Shown: positions 3,067-40,133 of the stretch, piece by piece | Layout: every line of letters starts with the position of its first letter | Position numbering within the stretch: position 1 is the first letter of the stretch | NCBI GenBank assembly: GCA_965221205.1 | Contig: OZ244870.1 | Location: 1,038,065 to 1,102,064, forward strand | Source: a bacterium | Lineage (GTDB): Bacteria > SM23-31 | Length of the DNA stretch: 64,000 nucleotides | Direction: 5' to 3' | Notes under the pieces: generated by a model | What the model was told of the DNA's origin: nothing | The model's input: only the letters and a program-made list of their open reading frames with translations | Databases searched by the model: none | Program-made: the position numbers and the translations under genes

Positions 3067-3508
3067 ACAGGAGCTTTTGGAAATCTATAAGCTTCACGCC
3101 GAACTTGCGGACAGGGTGAGCCAGAGACGGGAGGGGGCAAACAGGCTTTATGTAAGTCTGCTCGCGGGCATTTTTATTCTCCCTGCCGCTTTTCTAAAAT
3201 ATGGGACGGAAACCATTCCTGATTGGGTTATTGTGCTGGTAGCAGCTATTTTAGGCGGTTTTCTTTTTTTGTCGTGGTGTCTTATTATTCGTTCCTATTA
3301 TCGATTGGATAGGAGGAAATGCAAGGTATTGTGCGAGTTGGAAAAAAAACTTGTCTACCCTTTTTTCAAGCGCGAACGGGAGTTACTGGAAGAAGAAAAA
3401 AATATAAATAAATCTTGGGAGCTTATAGAGATTGAACATTTTCTTCCTTTTGGTTTCTTTATGGTTTTGCTGTACTTGTTTGTGTTTGGTGTCATCTATT
3501 TTTTTTAA
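3053..3508 (+). CDS. Small two-TM membrane protein, SLATT-like effector candidate
   Basis: 151 aa; N-terminal charged helix then two hydrophobic helices (LYVSLLAGIFILPAAFL and WVIVLVAAILGGFLFLSWCLII) plus hydrophobic C-terminus; ATG overlaps the end of the TIR-like ORF by 14 nt. Confidence 0.5.
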   Translation: MDQDRQELLEIYKLHAELADRVSQRREGANRLYVSLLAGIFILPAAFLKYGTETIPDWVIVLVAAILGGFLFLSWCLIIRSYYRLDRRKCKVLCELEKKLVYPFFKRERELLEEEKNINKSWELIEIEHFLPFGFFMVLLYLFVFGVIYFF

Positions 3509-3512
3509 TCAA

Positions 3513-5360
3513 ATGAACCCTCCCCTCAAAATAACCCCAGTAAAAGGCCGTCCGATGCTTCATTGGGTTGGCAAGAAGCCGCTCGATGTTGTCCGGCATT
3601 ATCCCGCGCAGTTGTGTGAAAGTGTTGGCGTTGAGAATCCACCTGTTGAGCCGTCTTATGCGGAATTCATCGAGAGCAACGCCAACCTGCTTTTTCACGG
3701 CGACAACAAGGAAATCCTGTCGTCTCTTTTGATCGCAGGGTTTCGGGGAAAGGTGGATTTAATCTACATCGACCCGCCGTTTGATTCCGGTGCGGATTAT
3801 GTCCGCAAGGTGAGGCTGCGCGGAGAGTCCGAAAGACTCGACGGTCAGGGCCACACTTTTCTGGAACAGGTGCAATACGAGGACATCTGGGCGAACGATA
3901 ACTATCTGCAATTCATGTATGAACGTCTGATTTTGATGCGGGAATTGCTGAGTGACACAGGAAACATCTTTCTGCAAGCTGATGACAAGAAAGGACACTA
4001 CTTGAAGATTCTTCTCGATGAAGTTATGGGAGAGAAAAATTACATCAATGACATTATTTGGCGCAAAGGAAGAGAAGGAGGCGGAGGCACGAAAGTTAAT
4101 CCTCCTCTGCCAACAGAATACCAAAACATCTATCTGTATGCCAAAAAACGCGACTCTCGAAAGTGGAACGCTCCACGCGGTCCCTATAACAAAAGCACTC
4201 TAAGTTCTTTGAAGAAAGATGAGAAGGGATGGTTTTATATGCGCGGTCGGATGGGACGACAGCCAAGACAATGGGAAATTGAAGCAGGCGTTGCGAGAAA
4301 AACTTATGTTAGTGAAAATCAGAACGAGTCAAGAGAGTCAGTTATACAAAGATTAACAACATTGGGAGGAAAGTTTGTCCTAATCGGGGACGTTTGGGAT
4401 TCTTATCTTATCAAAAATTCAACAAAAACCAATTACCCTACAGAGAAACCTGAGGCGTTGCTTGAGATTGCCATAAAATCGGGTACTGATGAAGGTGGAA
4501 TTGTTTTGGACTGCTTTTGCGGTTCCGGCACCACCGCTGCCGTTGCCGAGAAACTGGACCGCCGCTGGATCATGGCGGACATGAACAAGGGAGCGATTCA
4601 GACAACCATCAAAAGGTTGCAGGGTGTTATGGAGAAGAAAAGCAGCGACCTTGTAGAGAAAAACGGGCGCGGGCTTATTCACTATCGGGTGAACAACTAC
4701 GATTACGATGCCGCTGACCAGAATGAACTCAAGAAAATTATCGTTTCCAAATACGGCGTTCAGACAGACCGCAAGGATCTGTTTTTTGACGGAGTGGTTG
4801 GCGACGGGCAACTGGCGAAAATTGTTGACCTGGACAAACCGCTGACGCAACTGGACATTCAGATTATCAAGGATGAAATCGCACAGAACCGACCGGATGA
4901 GATGCGGGATATTACGGTTTTTTGCAACGGCTCGGAACTGGGAATTATGGGAGAACTTGCCAGGGAGAAAAACCCAATCAATACAATCACCGTCCGCGAC
5001 ATTCAACAGGATGGAATGATCACAAACCAGCCCGCCGAGGCAGAGGTTGAGATCAGCAAAAGCGGCGAAAGGGTGAAGGTGAAAATTGTCGATTACATCA
5101 GCCCCGCCATACAGGCCCGGCTGGAGAGTGACCGCACCATTTTTGATGAACGGATTGACGACTTCCGGGCGCAGATTGACTGCGTGCTCATCGACACCGA
5201 TTACAACGGTGAACATTTCAGAATAGTGGAAAGCGACCTGCCGGAGAAAAAAACCGATTTCATCAGGGCTAAGTATGAATTCACGCTGCCCCGTGCTGGC
5301 GCGAAAGTGGCGGTGAAAATCGTGGATATGCTCGGTGAGGAAGTTTTGACGGTCAAATGA
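3513..5360 (+). CDS. mod: Type III DNA methyltransferase Mod (beta-class N6-adenine type)
   Basis: Motif IV IYIDPPFDSGADY precedes motif I LDCFCGSGTT; start taken at ATG 3513 (MNPPLK) just after the stop of the upstream ORF at 3506-3508, rather than the ORF-track start 3432. Confidence 0.8.
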   Translation: MNPPLKITPVKGRPMLHWVGKKPLDVVRHYPAQLCESVGVENPPVEPSYAEFIESNANLLFHGDNKEILSSLLIAGFRGKVDLIYIDPPFDSGADYVRKVRLRGESERLDGQGHTFLEQVQYEDIWANDNYLQFMYERLILMRELLSDTGNIFLQADDKKGHYLKILLDEVMGEKNYINDIIWRKGREGGGGTKVNPPLPTEYQNIYLYAKKRDSRKWNAPRGPYNKSTLSSLKKDEKGWFYMRGRMGRQPRQWEIEAGVARKTYVSENQNESRESVIQRLTTLGGKFVLIGDVWDSYLIKNSTKTNYPTEKPEALLEIAIKSGTDEGGIVLDCFCGSGTTAAVAEKLDRRWIMADMNKGAIQTTIKRLQGVMEKKSSDLVEKNGRGLIHYRVNNYDYDAADQNELKKIIVSKYGVQTDRKDLFFDGVVGDGQLAKIVDLDKPLTQLDIQIIKDEIAQNRPDEMRDITVFCNGSELGIMGELAREKNPINTITVRDIQQDGMITNQPAEAEVEISKSGERVKVKIVDYISPAIQARLESDRTIFDERIDDFRAQIDCVLIDTDYNGEHFRIVESDLPEKKTDFIRAKYEFTLPRAGAKVAVKIVDMLGEEVLTVK

Positions 5361-10559: not shown

Positions 10560-11025
10560 AGTATAAATTTTCTTTTATCTAATGTGAATTAATTAAATTG
10601 TTTCAAAGTTAATTTTATTAAGTACTTTCTGCGCCTATATCAAATTCCTCAGAAATTTGTCTCTCGCGAAAACCAGGGCTGTAACCTGCTTTGTATTTTT
10701 GAGTTCCGATGATTTGAGATTCCTCACAAAGACAAATTGTATGTTGCAAACTTACAATCTCAAATCAGATTATAATCACTTCGCATTTATTTTTCTCTAC
10801 AATATCATCTACACCAGTAGTATATTAACACAATGACCGGATGAGGATTTTTCGAAGGACATCGTGTATTGCAATGTATTAAATTTATTTGATTTTCCAT
10901 TCATCGGGTTTGTTGAGTGTTTTCTGGATACAATTCTTAAATAAAATCCATTTATTCTGCAACATGTGTGGTAAAGTCTTCGTCATTACTATTAAACGAC
11001 CAGGCCCGGTAACCGGTAAGGAAGT

Positions 11026-16540: not shown

Positions 16541-17494
16541 GTGAATCAAGAGATATTAGATATTAAACAAGACATATTTCAATCGCACTATGAAATAGTA
16601 TTAGGTGATACTCTTGGAAATTTGCGCAAGACAGAATCGGAAAAATTTAATTTAATTATTACTTCACCTCCATACAACATTGGGAAAAATTATGAAACAA
16701 AACAACCTATTGAAACTTACCTAAGTCAGCAAGAAGAAGTTATTGATGAATTGGTGAGAATAATTTCCAATCAAGGAAGTATATGTTGGCAAATTGGAAA
16801 TTATGTAAATAATGGTGAAGTTTTTCCATTGGATATATACTATTATCAAATTTTTAAAAAGCATAATTTATTTTTAAGAAATAGAATAATATGGCATTTT
16901 GGACATGGTTTACATGCTTCTAATAGATTTTCAGGAAGATATGAAACAATATTATGGTTTACAAAAAGCAATGATTATATTTTTAATTTAGACGAAGTTA
17001 GGGTGCCATCAAAATATCCGGGCAAAAAGCATTTTAAGGGTCCAAAAAAAGGAAAGTTTTCTGGTAATCCTAAAGGTAAAAATCCAACTGACATATGGGA
17101 GGTTTTACTGAGTGATTGGGAAAAGGAAATATGGAATATCCCAAATGTGAAATCTAATCATCCTGAAAAAACAATACATCCCTGCCAATTTCCAATAGAG
17201 TTAGTTGAAAGATTTATTTTAGCGCTTACTAATATAGGAGGTTGGATTCTTGATCCATATGCTGGTGTAGGTTCTTCAATTATTGCCGCTATAAAAAACA
17301 ATAGAAATGTAATTGGAATAGAAAAAGAAATTGATTATGTCGATATAGCAAAGGATAGAATAAAAAAACTGTTTGAAGGTAATTTAAAGCTCAGACCTAT
17401 GACAAAGCCTATCCACCAACCTTCACCAAAAGATAAAATTGCTAAAATTCCTGAAGATTGGCTGTTTGATAATAGAGAAGGTAATACTCAATGA
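16541..17494 (+). CDS. DNA methyltransferase, beta-class (N4-cytosine or N6-adenine)
   Basis: Motif IV TSPPY precedes motif I LDPYAGVGSS; GTG start; stop overlaps the next gene start (ATGA). Confidence 0.8.
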   Translation: MNQEILDIKQDIFQSHYEIVLGDTLGNLRKTESEKFNLIITSPPYNIGKNYETKQPIETYLSQQEEVIDELVRIISNQGSICWQIGNYVNNGEVFPLDIYYYQIFKKHNLFLRNRIIWHFGHGLHASNRFSGRYETILWFTKSNDYIFNLDEVRVPSKYPGKKHFKGPKKGKFSGNPKGKNPTDIWEVLLSDWEKEIWNIPNVKSNHPEKTIHPCQFPIELVERFILALTNIGGWILDPYAGVGSSIIAAIKNNRNVIGIEKEIDYVDIAKDRIKKLFEGNLKLRPMTKPIHQPSPKDKIAKIPEDWLFDNREGNTQ

Positions 17495-18105
17495 AAATTG
17501 CACAAAAATATTCACATTTAAATGGAGAAGAATACTTGATAGTTCACCATAATAAGTTATACTCTGAGATTAAGAGAATTATTCAAAGTATCGATGCGGA
17601 TAATTTTAAAACAAAAATTAGTAAAGAGAAAACTAAAAAAGGTTTAAAGCTTTATAGCCCAATAGGATTGAATAAAGTATTTGATAAGTTGTTTTCAGAG
17701 AACAATTGGAAGGAAAGTAGATATCAGTACTATATTACACTCAATAGGGAATTAATGGAAAAAAGCATTTTACTTCCGGCTAAAGAACAAAAGGATTTTT
17801 TAGTTTCATCAGGTGAAAAAGAGCCATTATTTTCATACAACCAAACAGATTTTGTAAAAGAAAAGATTGCAGTTGAGATGCAATTTGGTAAATACTCATT
17901 TGTTGCATATGATTTGTTCGTAAAGCATATGTTGTTTTACTCAGGTGGTATTATAAATCTAGGGATAGAAATATTACCTACTAAAAAGATGCAATCTCAA
18001 ATGTCGTCTGGAATTGCATATTTTGAAGGAGAGGTTTATAACGTTATGCGGCATGGAAGAAATAACCCACCAATTCCTTTGCTAATAATTGGTATTGAAC
18101 CATGA
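17491..18105 (+). CDS. Type II restriction endonuclease, BglII/BamHI family
   Basis: 204 aa; block VEMQFGKYSFVAYDLFVKHMLF closely parallels BglII TLVEVQFSNYPFLLNNTVRSELF (recalled from memory); 4 nt overlap with the methyltransferase. Confidence 0.65.
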   Translation: MKIAQKYSHLNGEEYLIVHHNKLYSEIKRIIQSIDADNFKTKISKEKTKKGLKLYSPIGLNKVFDKLFSENNWKESRYQYYITLNRELMEKSILLPAKEQKDFLVSSGEKEPLFSYNQTDFVKEKIAVEMQFGKYSFVAYDLFVKHMLFYSGGIINLGIEILPTKKMQSQMSSGIAYFEGEVYNVMRHGRNNPPIPLLIIGIEP

Positions 18106-20427: not shown

Positions 20428-20802
20428 ATGGGAAAAACATACATCCCGAATCCCGAAAAATTTCCTGATGTACCGTTTAGCGGTGCTGTCGTTAGCGGAA
20501 ACACCTGTTACTGCTCTGGCAGTCTGGGGCTCGATGTAACGACAATGGAGATGGCTGAGGGCATTGAAGAACAGACGGTGAAAGCAATGGAGAATATAAA
20601 TGACACACTCTCACGTGCCGGATTTGAAATGGACGACATTGTTACGGCTACGATCTACCTGAAAAATCTCGATGATTTTAAGGTTATGAATGAGGTTTAT
20701 GCCCGCTACTTTCCCGGGAATAAGCCGTCCCGGACAACCGTCGGAGTTGCCGACCTCTTGATGGGTGCCCTCGTCGAAATCACATGTTTGGCAGAGAAAT
20801 AA
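20428..20802 (+). CDS. RidA family protein (YjgF/endoribonuclease L-PSP fold)
   Basis: 124 aa with typical RidA length and C-terminal TTVGVADLLMGALVEI pattern. Confidence 0.8.
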   Translation: MGKTYIPNPEKFPDVPFSGAVVSGNTCYCSGSLGLDVTTMEMAEGIEEQTVKAMENINDTLSRAGFEMDDIVTATIYLKNLDDFKVMNEVYARYFPGNKPSRTTVGVADLLMGALVEITCLAEK

Positions 20803-20975
20803 AAGTAAATCTCCAAAAAGGCAAAACATCCAACTTTTTATAAAGTTGAAGTTATGAGCTGAAATATGCGGTTTATTAAACCGATGGTGTATTGTCTTCA
20901 TTCCTTTCTCTTATCCTCTGTGATGATGATCTCCTCAATCGACTTCGGGCCGGTGACGTCAATCGTTTGCTGCTT

Positions 20976-21200
20976 TCAATCCGGTATCAGCTTCTTTAAT
21001 ACAGTTGATATTGCCTTTGCATTGCCGCTCAGTGCCATTTTGACAATCTCTTCGTACACATTTTTGCCCGTGTCCTCTATCTCGCTACGTAATGTTGTAG
21101 CGTTCCGATCAATAAATCGTTTGAGAAAAAATCCTGAGAGGAATCCTCCAGCGAATGATAACCAGAGTGCGATTATTATACTTATTGTTGTAATAGCCAT
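20976..21200 (-). CDS. Small hypothetical membrane-anchored protein
   Basis: 74 aa with N-terminal hydrophobic helix (IIIALWLSFAGGFLSGFF); chosen over the overlapping plus-strand ORF 20866-21249 on protein-likeness only. Confidence 0.3.
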   Translation of the reverse strand: MAITTISIIIALWLSFAGGFLSGFFLKRFIDRNATTLRSEIEDTGKNVYEEIVKMALSGNAKAISTVLKKLIPD

Positions 21201-21894
21201 ATTTGGAATGATAATGAGTGTAAATGGTTATGCAAGTTGTTTTTATTGACTGCACAACTGTTAGCAAGGTTAAAACATTGTGGTATATGGAGTTACGAAG
21301 ATGATTCGGATTGTTGCTAACGCTTGCTGACGTTCTAACTTCTTATATTTGTATATAGTTATATAGTATATAGTATAGTATGTCAGCAACATTTAATATT
21401 TATATACCTCATACGCGAGAGTATTACTCTGTATGTGTGATTTTTGTATAAATATTTATTTAAATAATAATATATATCTATCTAATTTTGAAGACATGCT
21501 GACAAGCGGTTTTTTTGGGACTTAAACATTATAGTAAACAAATAATTTGAAGGTGTTAGCAAAGATGTTAGCAAACTGGCAAAAATGGGTGAAAAATGGG
21601 GGTTTGTCAGCAACTTTTTGATGTTTTTAATAAAAATTATTATTGTTAAAATTTGTAAGCAAATGGCAGGAAATGGAGTAAAAACTAAAAAGTTTTAAAA
21701 AATTTATTGCAAAAAAAGTTTAATAAATGTGCTACAATGTGTTCGATTGTGTTCAGGAGAGCTGAATTTGTCCGTTATAACAACGCGGTGAATTATTGAC
21801 GGATAAGTTCTATGGTGGTGCTCTGATTTTATAAAGAAATAGTTTGGAAATTTTTTTATTGTTGTTTATATTTAACATTCGAACCTCCTTTGAG

Positions 21895-21969
21895 TGGTGG
21901 AGCTGTGGGGAATTGAACCCCAGCCGTCGGGTGCAAACCCCGATGTCCTCACGCCATGAGAACGGCCCC
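21895..21969 (-). tRNA. tRNA-like element (75 nt) with canonical T-arm and Ala/tmRNA-type 3' end CAGCUCCACCA but atypical D-arm
   Basis: Minus strand reads GGGGCCGTTCTCATGGCGTGAGGACATCGGGGTTTGCACCCGACGGCTGGGGTTCAATTCCCCACAGCTCCACCA; T-stem TGGGG/CCCCA with loop TTCAATT; acceptor has a G3-U pair and one C-A mismatch; anticodon-like loop GTTTGCA; 4 nt D-to-anticodon linker is non-canonical. Confidence 0.35.
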
Positions 21970-22276
21970 GCTTCACAAAAGGTATGGGGAAGTGGAATGT
22001 GTATTGTCTGCTAACAATTGCGTCTCCACTTCCCTTTTATTTTTAGATCTCAGTCAGATTCTTCTATGTCTCCGGCACCTTTTACACCTTTTACCATGAA
22101 AATGACTGGAGGGTCTCTGCAGAAAGAAATAATTTTCTTGACAAAATAATCAAAAAATCCTACATTAAAATGGCACATGGGTACACCTTTTACCTTTCTT
22201 AAGGTGTTCTTATGTCGTTGATTATAAGAGTGGTGCAAGTCTTAGCCCGACAGTGCCACTCTTTTTTTCTAACGGA

Positions 22277-22675
22277 TTAATTTTCGATACTTCTTCGATA
22301 CTTCGTATTTAAGCCAGAACCAGTTTTGTTAACATATCCATTCAGAACAAGTTTCTGCAAAGGTGAATTTACAGAAGCAAGTAAATCTTTTGCTTTAGAT
22401 TTTAATAATCCTTTATCTTTCATTTTTTTAAGTTCATCTCTGAGAGCAGGAGGAGTCCAATCTACTTTGGAGTATTCATCAAATATGTTCTTTATAACAG
22501 CAGAAGTGCCTAATTGCACTCCAGGATCTCCCTTAACATTTGTTGAGGTCTCTTCTGTTGAGGTCTCTTCCAAATTTTCCGTTAAAATTTCTATTGCTTT
22601 TCGAATTGTCTCAGCTTTTTCATTTAACTTTTTCTCTTGTTGTTGCAAGGCTTCGATTATTTCATTATGGCTCAT
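22277..22675 (-). CDS. Hypothetical protein (coiled-coil N-terminus)
   Basis: 132 aa ORF; its ATG lies at the first bases of the 75 bp tandem repeat. Confidence 0.4.
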   Translation of the reverse strand: MSHNEIIEALQQQEKKLNEKAETIRKAIEILTENLEETSTEETSTNVKGDPGVQLGTSAVIKNIFDEYSKVDWTPPALRDELKKMKDKGLLKSKAKDLLASVNSPLQKLVLNGYVNKTGSGLNTKYRRSIEN

Positions 22676-22822
22676 GTCTTTTTGTCCTCTCTTGCTTTTC
22701 TACTTTGTAAATATAATCAATAACTTCTCCATGTCAAGAGTTTTCTTCATGTCTTTTTGTCTTCTCTTGCTTTTCTACTTTGTAAATATAATCAATAACT
22801 TCTCCATGTCAAGAGTTTTCTT
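22673..22822. repeat. Tandem direct duplication, 2 x 75 bp, one mismatch
   Basis: Copy 1 22673-22747 and copy 2 22748-22822 (CATGTCTTTTTGTC[C/T]TCTCTTGC..GAGTTTTCTT); each copy carries on the minus strand a TTGACA-16nt-TATATT promoter-like element and an ATG. Confidence 0.8.
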
Positions 22823-23993
22823 GTTATTTTTAAAACAATAATAAGTATGCTTTGTTTTTGCTATTTGGAATTAGGTGTGTGAATGATAGAAAAATAAAAG
22901 TGGATAAACTCCAGTAAAAATACTACGTATTATTGCTGCAGTCTTATCAATTGTTGTCGGTATTAGTCTTTTAGCTAATAATTCCAATCCAGTATATCCG
23001 CTAATCTGTGGAATATTATTCTTAATTTTTGCAATACCCCATATTAAAAAAATCAGTTTTGGGCAAGAATTAACATATATAACATCCCAATATTACTTTA
23101 CATAGCAATACTGGTGAAGAAGTATCATTTAAAGAAGAGTCAAAAATGAAGTTTTTAGTAGATAAGAAATTTGAAGAGGTGGACACCTGGTGCACAGGAA
23201 CAGTTACAGGATTTAAATCAAATTTAGGAGAAATAACTGAACAAGGTTATGATTTAGATGGTAAGTTACCCTTGCGATTGAATTATGATATAGTCCAGAG
23301 AAAAACGACCAGTAACTAAACCAACTGATTTTCTTAGCATTACTGTTATTTTCCCAGATAATAGAAAATGGAAAGGTTATAAAGGTAGATATGAAGGTAA
23401 AAATACAAAAATCAAACTTCATGAAATCCAGCCTCAACCCTCTAAAATGGATGAAAAAGATTGTTTAATATGGGAAATTGATAAACCTAAATTAAATCAC
23501 AAATATAAACTTGAATGGACATGGTATATTGTCATACAGTCTCTTGAATGCGTTTTTTTCGCCTCTCCCTGAGCGCTTCGATCAATAACATTTCAACTGT
23601 ATTTGAAAACATCCGGTTGTCACGTTCGGGTCGGCGTAGTGATTCGACTTCGTTATTTACTCGCTCTTCAAGACGGATTGTTCTGTGTATTTTAGTCATT
23701 GTACTCGCCTTCTATTCTTCACCAAATATGTATTGTACAGGTATGCCTACGGCACGAGTCGACATGCCAGGTTCAAAGCGTATTAATTTCACACTTTTAG
23801 TTCCATCGATGCGCAGCAGCACGTTCTTCCAGCCAGTATGCCAGGCTGTGTCCTTGAGCAGCTTCCGTTCGACCACCAGCTCTATATTCTTTACTCATCC
23901 GGTATAAAAGGGACTCCTAAATGTATCGTTCATAATGCCGGCGGAACACTCCTTCAACATTTTAAAAAAGTCGCTCTCTATACAATTATTGTA

Positions 23994-25415: not shown

Positions 25416-25624
25416 TAGTATCCCAAAAAATATTTTTTTGATGAAAACAGTAATCTGGTTGTATTACATTTTTGCACGACGTGCAATTTGCACTTATATA
25501 TTTATACGAATTAATTTATTCAATATCTGTAAAATATATATTTTGATTGCTAATTATTTCTTCATTATAATAATGCATTCCAACCATCCCATAAGTACAC
25601 AATTCTCACATATAAGAATCGAAA

Positions 25625-27415
25625 ATGAAAATGTACCTATCGCATAACTACTCGAACAGCATCAAGTCTGAAGAGCGGTTGTCTTTAAAGTACACAGTTT
25701 TTGTACAGTCTTTAAGCATTGCAATGATACTCGCATTGTTCCTGTCTCTGATTATATCCGATGTTCAAGCATATGCTCCATTTGAAAAAAAGAACCAAAT
25801 ACAGTCTGTGATCGGAAAATTAGCGGTTCTGCCGCTTGAAAACCGGGGGATGCAGTCCGACGACTATTTAGCAACCGGTATGACAAATGAATTAATCGAC
25901 CTGTTGTCATATGTAGGCAGTCTGCAGGTTATCGGCAGAACAAGCTCATCCCATTTTCAAGGGCAAACCAGATCGTTGGCCGATGCAAAATCAAAACTCG
26001 ATGCGGACTATCTTGTTCTTGGAAGCGTGAAGCGCGCTTTGGGTGGTTCCATAGCGGTCGAGTGGCAGCTAATAGAAACAGCCAGAGGTGTTCCGCTTGT
26101 AACCACACGGTTTACTGAAGACACGGAAGAGGTATTTATACTTCTGGCCAGAATTGTTGAAAGAGTTGCAGAAGAGTTATCAATTGAATTGTCTAACGCA
26201 GAACAGAGGGCTATAAGGGAAAACCCAACCCAAAGCAGCAGAGCATTTGATTTGTATCTGAAAGGGATGCATGCACTTGTTACGGGAGAGAGCGAACGAG
26301 CAATCGGAACTGCTCTCTGGAATTTCAAAACTGCGTCTGAACTCGATCCCAATTTTGTAAAAATGCAGGGCACCTTATCTGTATTGATAGCACAGGAGTA
26401 CTACAACGGTGATGGATGGTTCGATGCATTTCTCGAATCGGAGGAAGCATTAAGACGAGCTATGGAGAGTGCACCTTCGCATATTTCCACACAAATTGCA
26501 AAAGGGTATAATTACTATTACGGCTATAGCAATTTCGATGATGCAATTGACCTGTTTTATGAGGCACTGGCAGTCAAACCGAGTAATCCTGAACTCCTAA
26601 TCGATGTCGGTGACATTTTCCGGCGACAGGGTAAATGGGATGAGGCGCTGCAATCCTATCACTTGGCAAAAATACTTGATCCGCTCAATGACAGGCTCCT
26701 CGGTTTGGGGCTCGGCCAGACGGCGCTTCTCATGCGCAGATATCAAGACGCAGAGCAGTATTATTCCAGAGCTATCGAACTTGCGCCTGAGAATCCTGAA
26801 TATTACCGACAAAAGGCTCGACTCTATCTGAACTGGGAAGGATCGACAGAAAAAGCCCGCAATGTTGTAAACGATGCACTTCAGCACATGGAGCAAGATG
26901 AACTTGCCTTTATCGCTGCGAAAATTGAAATGATCGAAAAAAAATACAGAAGAGCACTGCAATTACTTGAGACGATGGAAGGATCATCCGGGTATTTTCT
27001 CGACAGTGCGCTGATATATAGCTTGATGGGTGAAATAGAACGGGCGGAAGAATTGTATGATGCTGCACGGATCGGTCTCTTGCCTATGCTTCAGACTTTC
27101 CCGGCCGAACCTGATTATCATGCACTGATCGGCATTACTTACGCAGGTATGGGACTCACCGACAAAGCGCGCGGCGAAGCAAACCTGGCGTATGAACTCC
27201 TTTCGATAGACGATGATGCCTACAAAGGAGCGGTAAATCTTGAGAATTGTGCGGTCATTTATACAATTGCGGGGGATCATGATTCAGCGCTTGATTTATT
27301 GGAAGAACTCCTCGCAATCCCGTCATGGATTTCGGTTCAGCTCTTGCAAACCGATCCACTCTGGGCACCGCTGAGAGATAATGTTCGCTTCAAAACACTT
27401 ATAGCTCAAAATTAG
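25625..27415 (+). CDS. TPR-repeat protein with N-terminal TolB-like domain
   Basis: 596 aa; N-terminal TM helix; repeated TPR-like helical pairs in the C-terminal two thirds. Confidence 0.6.
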   Translation: MKMYLSHNYSNSIKSEERLSLKYTVFVQSLSIAMILALFLSLIISDVQAYAPFEKKNQIQSVIGKLAVLPLENRGMQSDDYLATGMTNELIDLLSYVGSLQVIGRTSSSHFQGQTRSLADAKSKLDADYLVLGSVKRALGGSIAVEWQLIETARGVPLVTTRFTEDTEEVFILLARIVERVAEELSIELSNAEQRAIRENPTQSSRAFDLYLKGMHALVTGESERAIGTALWNFKTASELDPNFVKMQGTLSVLIAQEYYNGDGWFDAFLESEEALRRAMESAPSHISTQIAKGYNYYYGYSNFDDAIDLFYEALAVKPSNPELLIDVGDIFRRQGKWDEALQSYHLAKILDPLNDRLLGLGLGQTALLMRRYQDAEQYYSRAIELAPENPEYYRQKARLYLNWEGSTEKARNVVNDALQHMEQDELAFIAAKIEMIEKKYRRALQLLETMEGSSGYFLDSALIYSLMGEIERAEELYDAARIGLLPMLQTFPAEPDYHALIGITYAGMGLTDKARGEANLAYELLSIDDDAYKGAVNLENCAVIYTIAGDHDSALDLLEELLAIPSWISVQLLQTDPLWAPLRDNVRFKTLIAQN

Positions 27416-33597: not shown

Positions 33598-36411
33598 TCA
33601 AGCGCCGCCAATGCCCGCGTGGCGTGAAAGAATGCTCTGAATATCACCGGGGGCTCTCGATATATCCCCTGCCCAGCGGCCAAAGCCGCCATGCGCGTTG
33701 ACGGCGGTGATCCATTCGTCGAGAAACCGGCGTTTGGTTCGGTCCTGTTCGCTGTCCTGTCCCTTGGTTTCCAACACGAGTATGTCGCCGGACCTGAACC
33801 GGATGAGGAAGTCGGGACGGTACTTCCGCACCACGCCGCGATGGACGTAGAACACTTCGAAGCCCAGGTGATCGTTTTTCACCCAGGCGGCGACCTCGGG
33901 GGCGTGATCGAGGGCAAAGGCTTCCGACGATTCCCAGGTGCTGTCATAGACGCAGAAATTGATATGGCTGCGCGCCGTGGGCTCGCAGGGCCTGCCGGTG
34001 TACCATGTCCCCATGTCGCCGGTTGAACGGATGGGCCGGTCCCGGTCGAACACCGGCTCCAGACTCTCGGTGTTCTCGAAGCGGATGGCTTCCCAGATAT
34101 GCTGGACCACCTTGGTCATGTTGAGCGTGATGATGAGACGGCGCTTGAGATCGTCGCGGAGGAATAGTGCAGGCGTGATGCTGATTCTGTCCGAACGGAT
34201 GAATTGATCGACCAGCCGTACCAGTTGGGCCAGCAGGAATGCTTTGCCTCCCCGCCAGTTCTTTTGCATTTGGTCGTAAACGTCCCGCGCGGTCTCAAAG
34301 ATAATCCGCTGTGTCCGAAACTCCCGCGCCAGATTCTCCAAGTCTATAGCCTCGATCTTCGTCACGTCCGGTTTGCCGGCGACGATTGGGGCAAGCTCCG
34401 CGATTCTTACGGTCCTGCCAACATCGAGTTCCAGGCTTGCCACCTTGTTCCAATCCAGGGAGAGCTGCGGTCGGTATACGTGGTCGATGCGGATCACGTT
34501 CGGCCAAGAGATTTCGAAAGCCGCTTTGCCCGTTACCGGCTCAATAGCGGTCTTTGGCGTTGGCGGCGGTGGAGGGCCGCTCTCTCCACCTTCGTGGGGC
34601 AGAAAAGTGAAGGGCACGCCGAAAATATTGACGTACTCCGGCTCGAACAAACCGTTGTTCGGGTTCACATCGTAAGATGTGCGGCGCAGGCCGCGTCCGA
34701 CGACCTGTTCACAGAGAAGCTGGCTGGTGAACGCGCGGAGGCCCATGATGTGTGTCACGGTCTTGGCGTCCCATCCCTCGGAAAGCATCCCGACGGAGAT
34801 CACATTCTGGATCAGCTCGCCCGTTTTCCCAGGTTGGCCCACGGTGTTCACCTGCGAGCGCAGCAGCTCGGCTTGCTGTTTTTTGGTTAGCTTGCGTGAG
34901 GGGCCGCCGTTCGCAGCTTCTTCGCTCTCGCCAGCGCCGATCTCCGCGATCGGCTCCTCGGCGGCCTCGGCCGCGTCAAGTACCCTTGAGTCGATATGAA
35001 GGGTTCGCGCCGGGTCGCAAAGCTCGCTGATACGGACTCTGCTGTGGTCGAATGCGTACTTGATCCGGGCTGCGGTCTCGGTGCGATTGGCGACGGTGAT
35101 CATCACTGGCGGGGTTTTGGACCCGTCCTTTCTCCATTGCTTAGATGTCTCGCGCCAGTCGAAGCCGAGAAGGCAGTAGCCATTGACCACCAGGTCCGGC
35201 AGCGGTTCTTCGGGCTTGGCCCGCCGGTTTAAGTCGTCCTTGACCTCGGCATCGTTGTAGATGTGGTAGAGGCGGGATTTGTAGGTCGTGACGTCAGGTA
35301 CCGCATCGTCGCGAATCACGACGCGTGGGGTCTTGACCAAACCGGACTCGATGGCGTCGTTCAGGCCGAAGTCGCTCACGATCCAGCCGAACAGCGCCTC
35401 CTCGGAACTCCGTTTACCCGATGGCGCGAAGGGCGTGGCGGAGAAGTCGCAGCAAGCGAGAATGCCCCGCGCCCTGTCGATCCGATCCAGGCCGCCAACC
35501 CACTTGGTCGCTTCCTCGATTTCATCCCTGGCAACACCTTTGACCTTGGATTCGGCGGGAACGCGCCAGGCGTGATGCGCTTCGTCATTGATGACAAGAA
35601 TGTTCCGGGCGTTCGCCAAGTCGCCCAGAACCTCGCGGACATAGGCTTCGTCGCTCTTGGATCTCCGTTTATCTACGCTGCGTTTTCCGGCAATCCTCTC
35701 ATCGGTCTCCCAATTGAGTGCGTGCCAGTTGCGGACCACGACCTTGCCTTGGCGCAGCTTGTCGAACAGGGACGACGGAACGACGTGGAAAGCTTTGTAG
35801 TAGTTCTCCGCATGAGACGGTTCCAAGACGGCCAGACGGTTCTTGACCGTGAGTCCCGGAGCGATAACCAGCACGTTTCGGGCGAATCGCGCATCCTGGG
35901 AATAGGTGACCTTGTTCAGGATATGCCAGGCGATGACCATGGCCATGACGACGGTCTTGCCCGAGCCGGTCGCCATCTTTGCGCACAACCGCCCAATCGG
36001 CCCGCCATCGGAAGGGATGTCAACGCCAATTTTCTCGGCCGCTGACGCTTCGGCAAGCCAGATCAGCGTCTCGACAGCCTCCAGTTGGCAGAAGAAAAAT
36101 CGACGGTTATCGAACTCCTCCGGGTTCGTCCAGTGCTCCAACAGCCGCTTCGTAATTCCCGTGACACCCGGATACCCGGCTCCACGCCACGCCCGTACAC
36201 GCGGACGAATCCGGTTGACCAGGGGAATCTCGACGAAATGGCCCGGATCATCGAACGATCGGGAGCCCTCCGAGGCAATGACGTATCCGGCCGGCCGGCG
36301 GCCTTGCGCACGGTCGAAAAGGCGCGTCTGGCGGTCGTAGCTCCAGTGTTGGCCCGGCTCCTCGTAGGGAGAGTTGATAATCAGGCGATCGATGGTTGTT
36401 TGCGCCATCAT
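33598..36411 (-). CDS. res: Type III restriction enzyme Res subunit
   Basis: Walker A ATGSGKTVV, DEAH box VINDEAHH, helicase C-terminal motifs; start ATG 36411 (MMAQTTIDRLIINSPYEEP) overlaps the hepT stop (ATGA); inside the GC-rich island. Confidence 0.85.
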   Translation of the reverse strand: MMAQTTIDRLIINSPYEEPGQHWSYDRQTRLFDRAQGRRPAGYVIASEGSRSFDDPGHFVEIPLVNRIRPRVRAWRGAGYPGVTGITKRLLEHWTNPEEFDNRRFFFCQLEAVETLIWLAEASAAEKIGVDIPSDGGPIGRLCAKMATGSGKTVVMAMVIAWHILNKVTYSQDARFARNVLVIAPGLTVKNRLAVLEPSHAENYYKAFHVVPSSLFDKLRQGKVVVRNWHALNWETDERIAGKRSVDKRRSKSDEAYVREVLGDLANARNILVINDEAHHAWRVPAESKVKGVARDEIEEATKWVGGLDRIDRARGILACCDFSATPFAPSGKRSSEEALFGWIVSDFGLNDAIESGLVKTPRVVIRDDAVPDVTTYKSRLYHIYNDAEVKDDLNRRAKPEEPLPDLVVNGYCLLGFDWRETSKQWRKDGSKTPPVMITVANRTETAARIKYAFDHSRVRISELCDPARTLHIDSRVLDAAEAAEEPIAEIGAGESEEAANGGPSRKLTKKQQAELLRSQVNTVGQPGKTGELIQNVISVGMLSEGWDAKTVTHIMGLRAFTSQLLCEQVVGRGLRRTSYDVNPNNGLFEPEYVNIFGVPFTFLPHEGGESGPPPPPTPKTAIEPVTGKAAFEISWPNVIRIDHVYRPQLSLDWNKVASLELDVGRTVRIAELAPIVAGKPDVTKIEAIDLENLAREFRTQRIIFETARDVYDQMQKNWRGGKAFLLAQLVRLVDQFIRSDRISITPALFLRDDLKRRLIITLNMTKVVQHIWEAIRFENTESLEPVFDRDRPIRSTGDMGTWYTGRPCEPTARSHINFCVYDSTWESSEAFALDHAPEVAAWVKNDHLGFEVFYVHRGVVRKYRPDFLIRFRSGDILVLETKGQDSEQDRTKRRFLDEWITAVNAHGGFGRWAGDISRAPGDIQSILSRHAGIGGA

Positions 36412-36602
36412 GCAGTCTCCGGTAGCACCAGCGGTTCGATGAGGTTGATGAGACGGGGAATGTCCTGTTGTGCGGTCTTCCACACATGCTTCAGGTCAAC
36501 CTCGAAATAGGCGTGTACGAGGCGATGTCGCATCCCAGCGAACTCCACCGCACCCCGCGCTGCCAGCAGCATGTCGAGCAGACAGGCATCGTCATGCCGC
36601 AT
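36408..36602 (-). CDS. HEPN-domain toxin (HepT/DUF86-like), short form
   Basis: R-x4-H-x-Y motif in GMRHRLVHAYFEVDLKHVW; start overlaps the mntA stop. Confidence 0.55.
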   Translation of the reverse strand: MRHDDACLLDMLLAARGAVEFAGMRHRLVHAYFEVDLKHVWKTAQQDIPRLINLIEPLVLPETA

Positions 36603-36903
36603 AGATCGTCTCGGCGGATTGGAGGATTGCGGCACGGCGAATGTAGTTTCGGCTCTGTTCGACCGCCGTGCGTTCGAACAGGTCTACCTCCCGGCCGAGT
36701 ATCCGAGCCAGATCGGCCTGCATTCGCGCCATGTCCAGAAGTGTGTGGCGCGCTTGTTGCTCGAAACGCACCAGTACATCCACATCGCTTTCCGGTCCGA
36801 AGTCGTCCCGTAGCACGGAACCGAACAGCGACAGTTCGACGATCCGCCAGCGTTTACAAAAGTCGGCTATCTCGTCTCGCGGTGTGTCGATATGTACACT
36901 CAT
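36592..36903 (-). CDS. Nucleotidyltransferase (MntA-type antitoxin)
   Basis: GS-x9-DxD motif LFGSVLRDDFGPESDVDVLV; start taken at internal ATG 36903 immediately after the upstream stop at 36906-36908. Confidence 0.7.
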   Translation of the reverse strand: MSVHIDTPRDEIADFCKRWRIVELSLFGSVLRDDFGPESDVDVLVRFEQQARHTLLDMARMQADLARILGREVDLFERTAVEQSRNYIRRAAILQSAETIYAA

Positions 36904-36905
36904 GC

Positions 36906-37748
36906 CTATAACACTTGGTTCGCGTCGACATTGAAGCCGACACTCTTTAGCTCCCGAATAAGTCTTAGCTTCCAACCATCCGAGCCGTCCAACGGAATGT
37001 AAATGACTCCATCATAGTCCGAGGGCGTCTCTACGTTACCTTTCACCAAAGTGCAGACTCGCTCTCGACCGAGTTTGCCAATGAAGTACCCGAATTCGAA
37101 AATCACGTTCTGTCTCGCCCGTGGCTTTTGATTCTTCTTGTCGTCCGCAAGCGCGCCCACGTCGTCCGGGGTCAGCAGGACCACCGCGAACCCAACTTGC
37201 GCATGTTCCTCAAACTTCTCGATGATCGTGCGGCCCTTATTCGGTTGTTCGTGCAGGATTACCGGTTCAAGATCCAGCCTTTCTAGGAATCTTGCAACCG
37301 TTCTCCGAGCAGATTCGTCGTGGCCATGGATGACGAAAACTCTGTTACTGCTCGATCGTTTGTCGATTCGTTCCGAGTCAAGCGCTGAAATGTCACTTTG
37401 ATCTATGGGTTGCGTTGGCGTCTGGTTTTCATCAGACCAATACTCCTCGATCTCCTCGATCATGGATTCGAGTACTGCGGCCGCTGATTCCAAGCCTTTC
37501 ACATAAACTTCCTGGCGTTCTGACTCAGGCGGCTCAAAGTAGGCAGGGGCAGGAGAAAAACGGATATTTTTGAAGTCTCCAATGTGGGCCGACTTGCTCT
37601 CAAACGTGTTGGTGATAGCGACCTCTGTGTTTCTTTGCCACTTATCAAACTCAGGTGAGCGGTACTTTAGGTTTTTTAATTTGGGTATTGCATCCAATGC
37701 TCTCCGCAGGCGCTCCAGACCCTTGGCTTTTATTGGTCGCGCCATCAC
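36906..37748 (-). CDS. TIR-like nucleotide-binding protein (COG4271/PF10137-like C-terminal domain) with unknown N-terminal domain
   Basis: C-terminal block RVFVIHGHD..FAVVLLTPDD..ARQNVIFEFGYFIGKLGRERV..PSDYDGVIY matches the TIR-like family pattern recalled from memory; start overlaps the Mod stop. Confidence 0.6.
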   Translation of the reverse strand: MMARPIKAKGLERLRRALDAIPKLKNLKYRSPEFDKWQRNTEVAITNTFESKSAHIGDFKNIRFSPAPAYFEPPESERQEVYVKGLESAAAVLESMIEEIEEYWSDENQTPTQPIDQSDISALDSERIDKRSSSNRVFVIHGHDESARRTVARFLERLDLEPVILHEQPNKGRTIIEKFEEHAQVGFAVVLLTPDDVGALADDKKNQKPRARQNVIFEFGYFIGKLGRERVCTLVKGNVETPSDYDGVIYIPLDGSDGWKLRLIRELKSVGFNVDANQVL

Positions 37749-40133
37749 TCCACCTCCACCACTTTTAAGCTCTCGATGCCGCGGTCGTCGACGATCTTGA
37801 CGGTGATGCGCCGGTGTCCGCCGACTTCGAAGGGGAGGGAGGACGTCCCGCGATAGGCCTCAACCAGGTCTGTGTCGATCTCGGCCTTGAGATTCCGGGC
37901 GAGTTTTGCCCAGCCGTCCCTGCTGCCCGCCATGGGAAAAAACACCTGGCGGGGAAACAGGCTGCGCCCGTCATAGTCCGGATCGAGCATCCACATAGCG
38001 ATCTTGTCCGAGCCGCCCGATTCCACGTTGCCGGTCTTGGTGTTGTAATAGTCGAATCCTTGGACCGAGACGCGGAACTTGCCCTGGTCTTCGCCTTCCT
38101 TGATCCGCTCGACTTCCATGTCCGGCTGGCCGATCAGCCAGAAGCTCTCGTTGCTTGTCCGCTTCTTCTTGAGGTCGTCGGTCAGCAAATCGGCGTTCAT
38201 CTGCACTTTTAACAAGGTGGCGCCAGGCCAGCGGGTTTCGTCGATGTCCTTGGGACGCTTCGGGATCGAACTGGAAGGCCGCAAAGACGATAACCTTGGG
38301 TCGTGGGGCAAGACTTTGTGCCTCCTCGATGGCGCGTGCCACCTGCCGCTGCTCCAGCGGTGCATGATCCGGCCCAAACGAGACCACGAGCCGTTCCGGA
38401 TTGCGGGTGGTAGCGGGGTCTTGAAAGCCGTCCGTCCCCGCATCGCCGGGCCGCGTCTCGCCCTCGGCGTGCAGCCATCGGGTTGCGGGCAGCGGTTCCA
38501 GCCGAGCAAATGAGATTCGCTGCCCGTCCTTGCCGCGAATGCCGGTCTTGAACAACTCGTCGCGCCAGTCGCCTTGGCGCACGGTCGGTCCAGTACGCGC
38601 CACGGAGGTGTCTGCCGGCAGTGCCTCGGACTCTTCGATGTCGTCCAGGGGCTTCACCGTTGGCGCGGGAACCGCTTCCACGGTGAACGGTCCGGTGACA
38701 CGGGCTTTGCGCCGGTTGATCTCCGGTTGATCGTAGAGCGTGGTCTCGTTGGGCGGTTCGTCATAGCCCAAAGTCTTCGCCGATACGGTGGCGACGCTGT
38801 GGTAACGAAAACCGGCCCCAACTCCTTCGTCAGGATGGGCCAGTTTGTAGTAGTGATAGTTCGCCGTCATGAGGCGCTGCTTGGCCAAGACTGTCGCGAC
38901 GCGCGATGTGTCGCAGGTGATCCATCTTCTGCCCCATTGCTCGGCGACGTGGGCAGTGGTACCGCTGCCGCAGGTTGGGTCAAAGACCAAATCGCCCGGA
39001 TCGGTGGTCATCAGGATGCAGCGCTGAATCGCCTTGTTAGCGGTCTGGACCACATAGTGCTTGGCACTGGGCGACATTGGTGCTGCCCAGATGTTGTTGA
39101 TTGGTCTCCCCGGAACCTCATCTTCATACCGTTTCCACATCAGTGACGTCTGGTTCCCCAGGGCTTCCAACCGACCTAGTTCGGCGAGTCGGTCTATTCC
39201 CTCTTTGGAAATGCGCCATTGGCTGTCCCTGCTACAACGAAAGACGCGACCGTCATATTCATAGGGTTCGGAGCGCGCAACCGTGGAAACACCCTGCGAT
39301 TCAAGGGGCATACGGCGATAAATGCGCCCGCCCTCCGGCAAGTGCTTGTCTGGGTCGAAGCGTTCTTCGGGGGTGGGTTTACGGCACTGGCCGTCAGGCA
39401 GTTCGACACTCACATATGAACTGAAAAACTCGATCACCTCGGCCCGCGTGAGCGACTCATACAATTGCCGGTATTTCACAAGCCCTCGGTCTCTGGCATA
39501 CCACAACAGATAATCCGCAACTTGGGGCAAGGTCTTAGCAGGACTGTTGCCGGTGGTCGCGTAGGAAATGGTTGCCATCCGGTTCTCTGCGCCGAAGATG
39601 TCGTCCATGACTAGGCCGACGCGGTGGATATTTTCGTCGCCGATCTGCACGAAGACACTGCCGCTCTCATGCAGCAGCTCGCGCGCCAACAGCAGGCGGT
39701 CGCGCAGATAGGCGAGATACGAATGGATGCCGAGTTCCCAGGTATCGCGGAAGGCGCGGATCGTCTCCGGCTCCTGGGTCAGGTCCTCGTCCCTGCCGTC
39801 GGTCACGGTGCGCTGGTTGACGAATGGTTGGAAGTTCGAGCCGTAGCGGATGCCGTAGGGCGGGTCGATGCGCTCATGGACGTGCAGGGATACGGTGGGG
39901 ACTTCGAACGAGGTGTGCTCGTCCTTCCCGGCCCAGACGAGCTGCGGATCCAGGTGCGGATCGTAAGCGTAGGTTGTCTTGCCCGCATCCTTGTCGGTCT
40001 CCGGTGTCACCAATCCGACAGGCGGGTTGTTCACACGCTCCTTGCCAGTGTGCGTGTAGTTTTCAACCTCACGCTTTTTTCTGTTCTTCGGTCCCGCTAT
40101 GTCGTTCCCCTTAACTTCGGTCTCTGTCTCCAA
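37745..40133 (-). pseudogene. mod: Type III DNA methyltransferase Mod, apparent +1 frameshift near 38252
   Basis: ORF 37971-40133 carries DPPY, NIWAAP and FDPTCGSGTT motifs, then turns into Arg-rich nonsense after ..FQFDPEA; ORF 37745-38509 continues in another frame with a Mod-like C-terminus; junction at a GGG run (plus 38252-38254). Confidence 0.7.

Follow-up and report, generated by a model that had tools for sequence, protein, structure and literature searches.

The DNA examined here is a stretch of 64,000 nucleotides (nt), hereafter the window, from contig OZ244870.1 of assembly GCA_965221205.1, which derives from a bacterium of the lineage SM23-31. On its minus strand, in the interval from a RidA gene (20428-20802) to a TPR gene (25625-27415), lies a 75-nt gene that is shaped like a tRNA and has an alanine-type acceptor end. 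An earlier note had read this element as an unusual tRNA, a pseudo-tRNA or a tRNA-derived attachment site. We find that the tRNA-shaped feature is real and that it is not a standard gene. We also find, beyond what the earlier note held, that the gene is strain-specific, that it lies within insertion sequence (IS) debris, and that it has one specific relative, which sits on a transposon of the IS1595 family. The complete tRNA-like fold, the alanine-type end, the strain-specific IS debris and the transposon-borne relative speak for the reading that we put forward, tentatively and with somewhat less than even confidence, namely that the gene is a mobile-element-borne, alanine-accepting, non-decoding tRNA mimic, a function that we infer. 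The parts of the gene are as follows.

21895-21969, minus strand: tRNA-like gene, 75 nt, with encoded CCA (direct reading; ARAGORN; Rfam, sub-threshold; structure in common with the metagenomic relative L218)
21969-21963, minus strand: 5' strand of the acceptor stem, GGGGCCG, followed by UU
21960-21948, minus strand: D hairpin, CUCA UGGCG UGAG
21947-21944, minus strand: linker GACA
21943-21927, minus strand: anticodon-like arm, UCGGG GUUUGCA CCCGA, with the loop GUUUGCA at 21938-21932
21926-21923, minus strand: CGGC
21922-21906, minus strand: T arm, UGGGG UUCAAUU CCCCA
21905-21899, minus strand: 3' strand of the acceptor stem, CAGCUCC
21898, minus strand: discriminator A73
21897-21895, minus strand: CCA

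All four stems of the gene pair (20 of 21 pairs). Six of the seven acceptor pairs form (G1-C72, G2-C71, G3-U70, G4-C69, C5-G68 and G7-C66), the exception being a C6-A67 mismatch, and the 3' end is CAGCUCCACCA, with A73 as discriminator and the CCA encoded. The T arm is the textbook one previously described, with 5 bp and a loop, UUCAAUU, of the UUCRANY type. The D hairpin has 4 bp and a 5-nt loop, and is followed by 4 nt (GACA) where a tRNA has one nt; this is the sole 4-bp D stem, and it is out of register (10-13/19-22, as against the canonical 10-13/22-25 plus one nt at 26). The anticodon-like stem has 5 bp and a 7-nt loop, G32-U33-UUG-C37-A38, which departs from the canonical Y32...R37, and in the only stable register of this stem UGC falls at 35-37 and not, as in the NGC anticodon of tRNA-Ala, at 34-36. 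The short D loop, the 4-nt linker, the C6-A67 mismatch, the pyrimidine at position 37 and the Ala/tmRNA-type end with G3-U70 that the earlier note had listed are all found at 21895-21969 by direct reading. G3-U70 and A73, which are identity elements for alanyl-tRNA synthetase (AlaRS), are present by direct reading, and charging with alanine is predicted from them.

Two of the computational checks that had been suggested for this element bear on what kind of gene it is. ARAGORN reports a single tRNA in the 64 kb, a tRNA-Gln(ttg) at exactly 21895-21969 on the minus strand. In 60 shuffled versions of the whole window with dinucleotides preserved it reports none, which places the gene far beyond chance. 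The covariance models of Rfam, for which the gathering scores are 29 bits (tRNA, RF00005) and 47 bits (transfer-messenger RNA, tmRNA, RF00023), gave a divided answer: at gathering score neither model matches in the window, whereas in E-value mode, which prints the best match of a clan and neither identifies nor scores lower overlapping ones, the best match is tmRNA at a sub-threshold 33.6 bits (cut-off 47; E = 1.1e-11). That alignment is global, with 36 nt standing in for 328 internal positions of the model, and draws on the acceptor stem and T arm only. Because there is no match at gathering score and the best match is confined to acceptor stem and T arm, the gene is neither a standard tRNA nor a tmRNA. 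The idea that it is the 3' part of a larger known RNA also fails, since only 36 nt separate the acceptor strand from the T arm and ARAGORN calls no tmRNA in the window. An unusual tRNA or pseudo-tRNA was thus the right neighbourhood: the gene is tRNA-shaped, scores below curated thresholds and lies in mobile-element debris.

Judged from its sequence, the gene is formally closest to the tRNA-like domain (TLD) of tmRNA (ssrA), with which it has the acceptor stem and T arm in common; its acceptor is the common GGGGCUG...CAGCUCCACCA apart from a change of U6 to C. It nevertheless has 75 nt and not ~350, and it lacks the mRNA-like domain, the pseudoknots, the resume codon and the tag open reading frame (ORF). 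With tRNA-Ala(UGC) it has in common G3-U70, A73, G2-C71, G4-C69, the T arm, the overall length and the sequence UUUGCA in the anticodon loop. It differs in that UUUGCA lies one position 3' of the normal register, so that UGC is not at 34-36 and there is a C at 37, as well as in its shifted D stem, 5-nt D loop and 4-nt linker and in scoring below the Rfam tRNA cut-off. TLD-only homologues of tmRNA (that of phage DS6A, and plastid forms of ~65 bp without a coding sequence) are likewise short RNAs of mobile or reduced genomes without a tag reading frame; they share the tmRNA-type acceptor GGGGCnG/CnGCUCC, G3-U70, the ACCA end and the T arm, and for the window gene, too, tmRNA is the best Rfam match, with the L218 relative reaching the cut-off. 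The phage TLD-only RNAs that we collected have a single helix-2-like hairpin between GGUUUCGAC and GGAC and no D stem, whereas the window gene has two hairpins, one D-like and one anticodon-like. Phage tRNAs and pseudo-tRNAs, finally, are also tRNA-shaped genes on horizontally acquired DNA, but the phage tRNA-Ala genes in our scans are canonical cloverleaves, mostly in tRNA clusters (for example L219, L201 and L327), and the window gene is solitary and non-canonical. It is best filed as a new variant within the tRNA and tmRNA-TLD mimics on mobile DNA.

Relatives were sought in public collections with four pattern scans, built on a G3-U70 acceptor, a T arm and CCA and in some cases narrow, which gave at least 258 distinct sequences, most of them canonical tRNA-Ala genes. 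The scan of the genome collection, in which GTT was required at positions 7-9, gave 44 loci and no close relative. Among the matches listed, the viral scans gave canonical tRNA-Ala and many TLD-only RNAs, with no exact copy of the 3' 27-mer of the window gene and no window-type element, and the metagenome scan (at least 120 matches) gave one specific relative, L218:8511-8583, on a 123-kb metagenome contig. The two genes share a D hairpin of 4 bp whose loop is UGGC(G), a linker of 3-4 nt and CGG(A)C before the T arm. Among the matches listed, 74 collected G3-U70 elements have a loop of the TTGCA type closed by a stem of 4 bp or more, and only the window gene and L218 (2 of the 74) have NUUUGCA shifted one position 3' of the tRNA-Ala register. 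In an alignment of these two sequences that was made by hand and fitted to the structure, 95% of cells are paired and 6 of the 21 pairs are compensatory, including all four pairs of the D hairpin; when partners are slid by 1-3 columns, pairing falls to 41-54%. As far as two sequences can tell, such conserved loops and covarying stems are the pattern shown by homologous structured RNAs. L218 has a U6-A67 pair where the window gene has C6-A67, scores 47.3 bits on the Rfam tmRNA model (cut-off 47) and is followed by its own terminator.

The scans brought up several other elements that may be recorded here. Viral IMG/VR contigs (L177-L191, L005, L012, L045, L058, L078 and others) carry many TLD-only mini-tmRNAs of 78-84 nt, laid out as GGGGnnG..GGUUUCGAC, a hairpin, GGAC, the T arm and ACCA, and these seem far commoner than the lone phage DS6A case cited in the tmRNA literature that we consulted. 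A 65-nt element, GGGGCGGTT..GTTCAAAGCC..CATCTCCACCA, recurs in L123, L125, L143, L144, L153 and L154, in metagenome-assembled genomes (MAGs) labelled Ignavibacteria, Paceibacterota, Vogelbacteria, Alphaproteobacteria and Bacteroidota, a spread across phyla that suggests a mobile or phage origin. An 81-nt tRNA-Ala(GGC)-like gene with an enlarged 5' D region (GTTTACCNGTNAAYTCGGGAGAGC) is found in L133-L163, from MAGs of Acutalibacteraceae and related Clostridia, and is conserved over many species-level MAGs. At L161 5139-5293 a tRNA-shaped gene with the loop UUACUAA, called tRNA-Ser(act) by ARAGORN, directly follows an Ala-type element.

ARAGORN gives the L218 element the same odd label, tRNA-Gln(ttg), as the window gene. 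This, together with a 7-nt loop with U33 and an acceptor stem and T arm that would suit EF-Tu and the ribosome, raises the possibility of a working decoder tRNA, one that would read CAA and CAG with UUG and be charged with glutamine or with alanine, in the latter case as a deliberate mistranslator. C37 and G32 are, however, both very rare in decoding tRNAs, and both are present here; the D stem is out of register, with the 4-nt linker in place of one nt; L218 has an A-A mismatch as its loop-closing pair; and no tRNA match reaches the gathering score. The elements by which glutaminyl-tRNA synthetase knows its tRNA, which we take to be a weak 1-72 pair, G73 and G10, are absent by direct reading, the window RNA having G1-C72, A73 and C10 instead. 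We consider a decoder highly unlikely, and the label tRNA-Gln misleading as an annotation of this gene.

Comparison with the syntenic locus of four sister strains (L171, L312, L313 and L326, chosen by an S9 peptidase in the same 90%-identity cluster, or 99% for L171) and of two related species was made by BLASTN of the window against these loci, and the tRNA-like gene is absent from all four strains and from both species. Among named homologues of the S9 peptidase, the nearest (~70%) come from MAGs of Calditrichota, KSB1 and Gemmatimonadota. In L171 and L313 precisely 21765-22914 is missing, with ~264 bp of unrelated sequence in its place, and L312 and L326 lack the whole of 20870-23855; an identical copy of the shorter segment is found only in the Logan contig L001. 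A DUF5681 gene is called at the corresponding site of L171 and L313 and is broken in the window, and in the related-genome loci L172 and L174 a DUF5681 gene lies between an integrase and a D5 primase. The tRNA-like gene is therefore accessory DNA within a hypervariable insertion site. We note that L326 carries, at 10698-10770 on the minus strand, a degenerate tRNA-like sequence (called tRNA-Glu(ttc) by ARAGORN, with a weak T stem and no CCA), which sits in a different 1.2-kb insertion of the same variable region, at the point that corresponds to window position 25525.

The 3' ends of tmRNA and tRNA genes are classic integration sites of islands (PMC11915505), and the RidA-TPR interval is a hot spot of insertions that vary from strain to strain, with a remnant of DUF5681, a gene that in the related genome stands beside an integrase. 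Both points would suit the suggestion, made in the earlier note, of a tRNA- or tmRNA-derived attachment or target site, left or used by an integrating element. That part of the earlier interpretation did not hold, however, while the unusual or pseudo-tRNA with an Ala-type end did: a second copy of the gene's 3' 27-mer is nowhere in the window, even with 3 mismatches allowed, there is no integrase among the gene's neighbours, and the gene is a complete, full-length cloverleaf and not a 3' fragment. Moreover, in the three relatives for which transposon ends can be defined (L218, L314 and L315, described below) the transposon encloses the tRNA-like gene and has inserted at a target elsewhere, such as comM. 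We give an attachment site a very slim chance.

The surroundings of the gene within the insertion are as follows.

20870-23855, no strand: larger insertion that varies among strains, located between RidA and TPR and missing from L312 and L326
21765-22914, minus strand: strain-specific segment of 1150 bp (BLASTN against syntenic loci)
22102-22914, minus strand: left part of a two-gene IS, forming the left 812 bp of the segment, ~80% identical to an IS in a related genome
22914-22900, minus strand: left inverted repeat, CTGGAGTTTATCCAC
22821-22672, minus strand: 75-bp tandem duplication (99% identical) in the promoter region
22675-22277, minus strand: orfA, 132 aa, followed by ~175 nt of conserved downstream sequence
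21765-22101, minus strand: orphan stretch of 337 bp, containing the tRNA-like gene together with the motif, hairpin and small ORF listed below; IS homology ends at 22102 and sister-strain homology resumes at 21764
22060-22079, minus strand: motif GGUGCCGGAGACAUAGAAGA, resembling the GGAGGUG-N3-CAUGAGAAGA start of alphaproteobacterial mini-ORFs, with no AUG here
21987-22034, minus strand: hairpin GGGAAGUGGA-28 nt-UCCACUUCCC, ending 17 nt upstream of the 5' end of the tRNA-like gene
21890-21884, minus strand: Shine-Dalgarno sequence AAGGAGG
21878-21810, minus strand: 22-codon ORF, MLNINNNKKISKLFLYKIRAPP and a stop, starting 16 nt after CCA
21765-21778, minus strand: possible degenerate right inverted repeat (..CGGACAAAUUCAG), as aligned by hand with the left repeat in reverse complement

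In its full form (L172 9797-12239, and also L173-L176) the two-gene IS has 2443 bp, an orfA of 126 aa and a DDE_Tnp_1 transposase, 23-bp inverted repeats and target duplications of 7-8 bp, and it is present in multiple copies in at least 3 different contexts in the related genome (L172-L176), where, as a side observation, it often adjoins IS1595-family copies. The window copy is missing the transposase gene. Its tandem duplication doubles the consensus promoter of orfA, TTGACA-N16-TATATT, and within orfA a perfect 15-bp tandem repeat (22541-22570) doubles the peptide EETST. Pfam and PHROGs gave nothing for orfA or its neighbours, and BLASTP of orfA (132 aa) against the proteins upstream of the alphaproteobacterial RNAs described below gave no alignment. 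At the right edge, 10 of the first 12 positions of the possible repeat match, with one gap and with mismatches that are all transitions (chance estimate 0.01-0.03), and there is no target duplication.

The 337-bp orphan stretch had no match by BLAST in the phage or plasmid collections, nor in any locus that we fetched. Its hairpin, a candidate terminator of the upstream gene or part of the precursor, has counterparts in L218, L124, L138 and L314, where a stable hairpin likewise lies 3-16 nt upstream of the tRNA-like gene. The pattern GGUG...CAUAGAAGA, ~90 nt upstream of the gene, has 2 matches in the window as against 0.02 expected from shuffles, a pattern defined post hoc and of which the match at 13765 is unrelated; as a link to mini-ORFs led by a Shine-Dalgarno sequence, the motif may be taken as a weak lead. 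The DNA of the 22-codon ORF aligns weakly with the 5' end of the L172 IS1595 transposase gene (47 of 1000 shuffles score as high) and the transposase hidden Markov model (HMM) has no match there; from the alignment, the ORF is a possible stump of a transposase gene.

The tRNA-like gene has no sigma-70-type promoter directly upstream, and two consensus promoters lie upstream of orfA; because none is found directly upstream, the RNA would probably be transcribed by read-through from the duplicated strong orfA promoters. Alternatively, a weak TAnnTTTG-like motif that ends 7 nt upstream could serve as a start if the host uses that promoter type. A gene placed in this way, between orfA and a strongly Shine-Dalgarno-led ORF that starts 16 nt after its CCA, with no sigma-70-type promoter of its own found and with a hairpin preceding it in the window and in relatives, might also be a processing or stability module: RNase P and trimming would split the orfA message from the downstream (transposase) message or cap a 3' end, and aminoacylation would be irrelevant. 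The terminator of the L218 gene speaks against such a module, and so does the strict retention, in the transposon RNAs, of G3-U70, A73 and CCA through compensatory changes of the acceptor stem, which suggests selection for being recognised by AlaRS and not by RNase P alone. We regard a pure processing module as distinctly improbable, although as an account of the RNA a processing or stability role is, like plain decay, a serious rival to the tRNA mimic.

The L218 RNA is located 139 nt downstream of a degenerate transposase gene of the IS1595 family (PF12762), and by tblastn transposase genes of this family also adjoin G3-U70 elements of non-canonical form at eight other loci (L124, Rhodopseudomonas; L138, Devosia; L195; L209; L307; L311; and L266 and L299, in which the tRNA is near-canonical), whereas none was found beside standard tRNA-Ala genes. 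The homologues of the L138 transposase form a large alphaproteobacterial family, and when loci were looked up from the transposase a tRNA-like gene lay 330-500 nt upstream in all three, with a divergent XRE gene between. It is alanine-type (G3-U70, ACCA end) in Bosea sp. PAMC 26642 (L314, CP014301) and Bradyrhizobium L315, and in L316 (soil contigs, ~3565-3640) it is a canonical-looking tRNA with the end GCCA and, as its T loop, the non-standard AUCGUCC. The L315, L314 and L218 genes are enclosed by terminal inverted repeats (23-28 bp; CGG(C/T)ATTAGGTAGCAAAC(T/G)CACC) and by 8-bp target duplications (AGCAACTC, GGATTATC and CAAAACTG) in the following transposons.

L315, 2152-6664: IS1595-family transposon with perfect repeats, inserted in comM
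L314, 2734-6466: IS1595-family transposon of Bosea, with an XRE regulator and a SocA_Panacea passenger
L218, 6549-9444: IS1595-family transposon; inverted repeats of 28 bp, target duplication of 8 bp, remnant of an IS1595-family transposase

Since repeats and target duplications enclose the gene in these three, the idea that IS1595 elements merely insert beside tRNA-like genes fails for them; the candidate repeats at L138 and L311 are probably due to chance. We also considered whether the 5' end of the tRNA-like gene is itself a transposon terminus, as the IS1016-type ends GGGgctg might suggest, and rejected this, since there was no matching inverted copy in 7 loci. Besides the tRNA-like gene, L314 and L315 carry the XRE regulator and other passengers. 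Among the alanine-type transposon RNAs the acceptor stem covaries (GCG/CGC, GUA/UAC, CUG/CAG, CCG/CGG) while G3-U70, A73 and CCA are fixed, which argues for selection on an end that AlaRS can read. As a separate observation, a mini-ORF and a hairpin precede the tRNA-like gene in L124 (~2180-2255), L138 (minus strand), L314 (~3430-3525) and L315 (~3500-3598); the mini-ORFs have a very strong Shine-Dalgarno sequence, GGAGGUG, and 3-8 codons (AUG AGA AGA UAG, AUG AGA AGA CGU UGA, AUG AUA AUA GCG UGA), and with the hairpin may form a leader or attenuator.

Elements of the ISNha5 type, which belong to the IS1595 family and carry a regulator as passenger, are described (PMC11891212, citing Siguier et al. 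2009). It is inside such transporter IS that the L218 and alphaproteobacterial genes lie, the elements having a transposase of the IS1595 family, an XRE regulator, target duplications of 8 bp and CGGnnTT ends. ISfinder reportedly gives such ends for ISNha5 as well. In the literature that our searches covered, we found no tRNA-like passenger in the IS1595 family, and co-mentions of IS1595 and tmRNA look incidental, judged by title and abstract. It is conceivable, though we think it unlikely, that transporter IS of the IS1595 family have alanine-type tRNA mimics among their functional parts and that the window gene is a stranded member of that class; by hand alignment of the two sequences, the window gene has in common with the L218 member the UGGC D-loop hairpin, the NUUUGCA loop and the Ala acceptor. 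Through a mimic of this kind, transposase expression or the quality control of host translation (AlaRS, EF-Tu, SmpB) could be coupled to the life cycle of the transposon, and in the alphaproteobacterial copies the RNA may act together with the Shine-Dalgarno-led mini-ORF (AUG AGA AGA stop), the hairpin and the XRE regulator.

How might the window RNA work if it is a tRNA mimic? Once transcribed, it would be cut by RNase P at G1 and trimmed at its 3' end to the encoded CCA, and AlaRS would then charge it by way of G3-U70, A73, G2-C71 and G4-C69. G3-U70 with A73, G2-C71 and G4-C69 reportedly suffices even in minihelices, in work attributed to Hou and Schimmel in 1988 and to Francklyn and Schimmel in 1989. 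The displaced D hairpin, the 4-nt linker, G32 and C37 would make normal codon reading unlikely. The product would be a non-decoding alanine acceptor like the TLD of tmRNA, which could bind and titrate proteins that handle tRNA and tmRNA (AlaRS, EF-Tu, SmpB); another possibility is that it aids the processing or the stability of transposon transcripts, as a handle. For mycobacteriophage DS6A, two papers describe a sequence that consists of little beyond the tRNA-like domain of tmRNA, and report that a DS6A-like TLD-only RNA strongly inhibits tmRNA in E. coli, perhaps through titration of SmpB (PMC4131195; PMC11915505). This inhibition is the only experimental precedent for such molecules.

Several findings weigh against a functional mimic, or against its placement with the transposon RNAs. 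The exact RNA is known from one copy and the identical contig, so that conservation of its sequence is not measurable, and, with narrow patterns and counts that are lower bounds, the rarity of its type is unproven. It lacks, in the right place, the GGAUUCGAC-type and GGAC motifs that border the single hairpin of the phage TLD-only RNAs, and its anticodon arm occupies the place where SmpB would sit, which makes SmpB binding doubtful. In their middle parts the RNAs of the alphaproteobacterial transposons are unlike the window RNA, Rfam sees them hardly or not at all, and they may not form one family with it. By HMM search the window has no IS1595 transposase, and it has no CGGnnTT-type inverted repeat; with these missing and the other hints weak, its link to IS1595 comes down to the resemblance to the L218 RNA. 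The sub-threshold model scores, the C6-A67 mismatch and a folding energy that is not distinctive (z = -1.66) would, finally, fit a relic.

These last points also bear on the view that the gene is a dead pseudogene derived from tRNA-Ala(UGC), brought in by a phage or transposon and now without function. Its UUUGCA loop is the sequence of tRNA-Ala(UGC) and points to that ancestry; it is present in one of five strains, in a region full of broken mobile DNA in which L326 has a second degenerate tRNA-like sequence in another insertion; it scores below both the tRNA and the tmRNA cut-offs; the mismatch stands where L218 has U-A; and the transposase partner is missing. Random decay would, however, be expected to disrupt the stems, and here 20 of 21 pairs still form, with a perfect T loop and CCA. 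The shifted loop with C37, the short UGGC D hairpin and the long linker are, moreover, common to L218 across six compensatory changes, which argues for a selected design rather than independent decay. We consider a dead gene somewhat unlikely. Even as a tRNA mimic, the window copy may already be decaying in this strain, given the C6-A67 mismatch and the lost transposase.

Two other parts of the window may be mentioned in passing. At 16541-18105 lies a BglII-type restriction-modification pair (GC content 0.315), of which the endonuclease is intact (204 aa) in the window and L313 and fragmented in L171, L312 and L326, and the methylase is intact. The stretch at 33598-40133 has a high GC content (0.56-0.61; ~0.45 elsewhere). 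Its genes are for a ResIII helicase, a CAP12/Pycsar-type TIR-domain protein and an N6/N4 DNA methylase, and it looks like a horizontally acquired defence island.

Should the less likely reading hold, in which such mimics belong to the working parts of IS1595-family transporter IS, the RNA would be a tRNA mimic encoded by a transposon, a type of RNA that we did not find described for transposons. A lone and possibly decaying copy in the window is in itself of moderate interest, and the lead to IS1595 transposons is the more valuable: the side result that bounded, recently transposed IS1595 elements (Bosea L314, Bradyrhizobium L315 and the metagenome contig L218) each contain an alanine-type tRNA-like gene, barely seen by Rfam, may matter more than the window gene. 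Non-decoding mimics that accept an amino acid are known in the form of tmRNA and of one TLD-only RNA, from a phage, by which ribosome rescue is blocked. Should the window gene and L218 work in the way that we propose, then ordinary transposons, and not phages alone, would carry such mimics.

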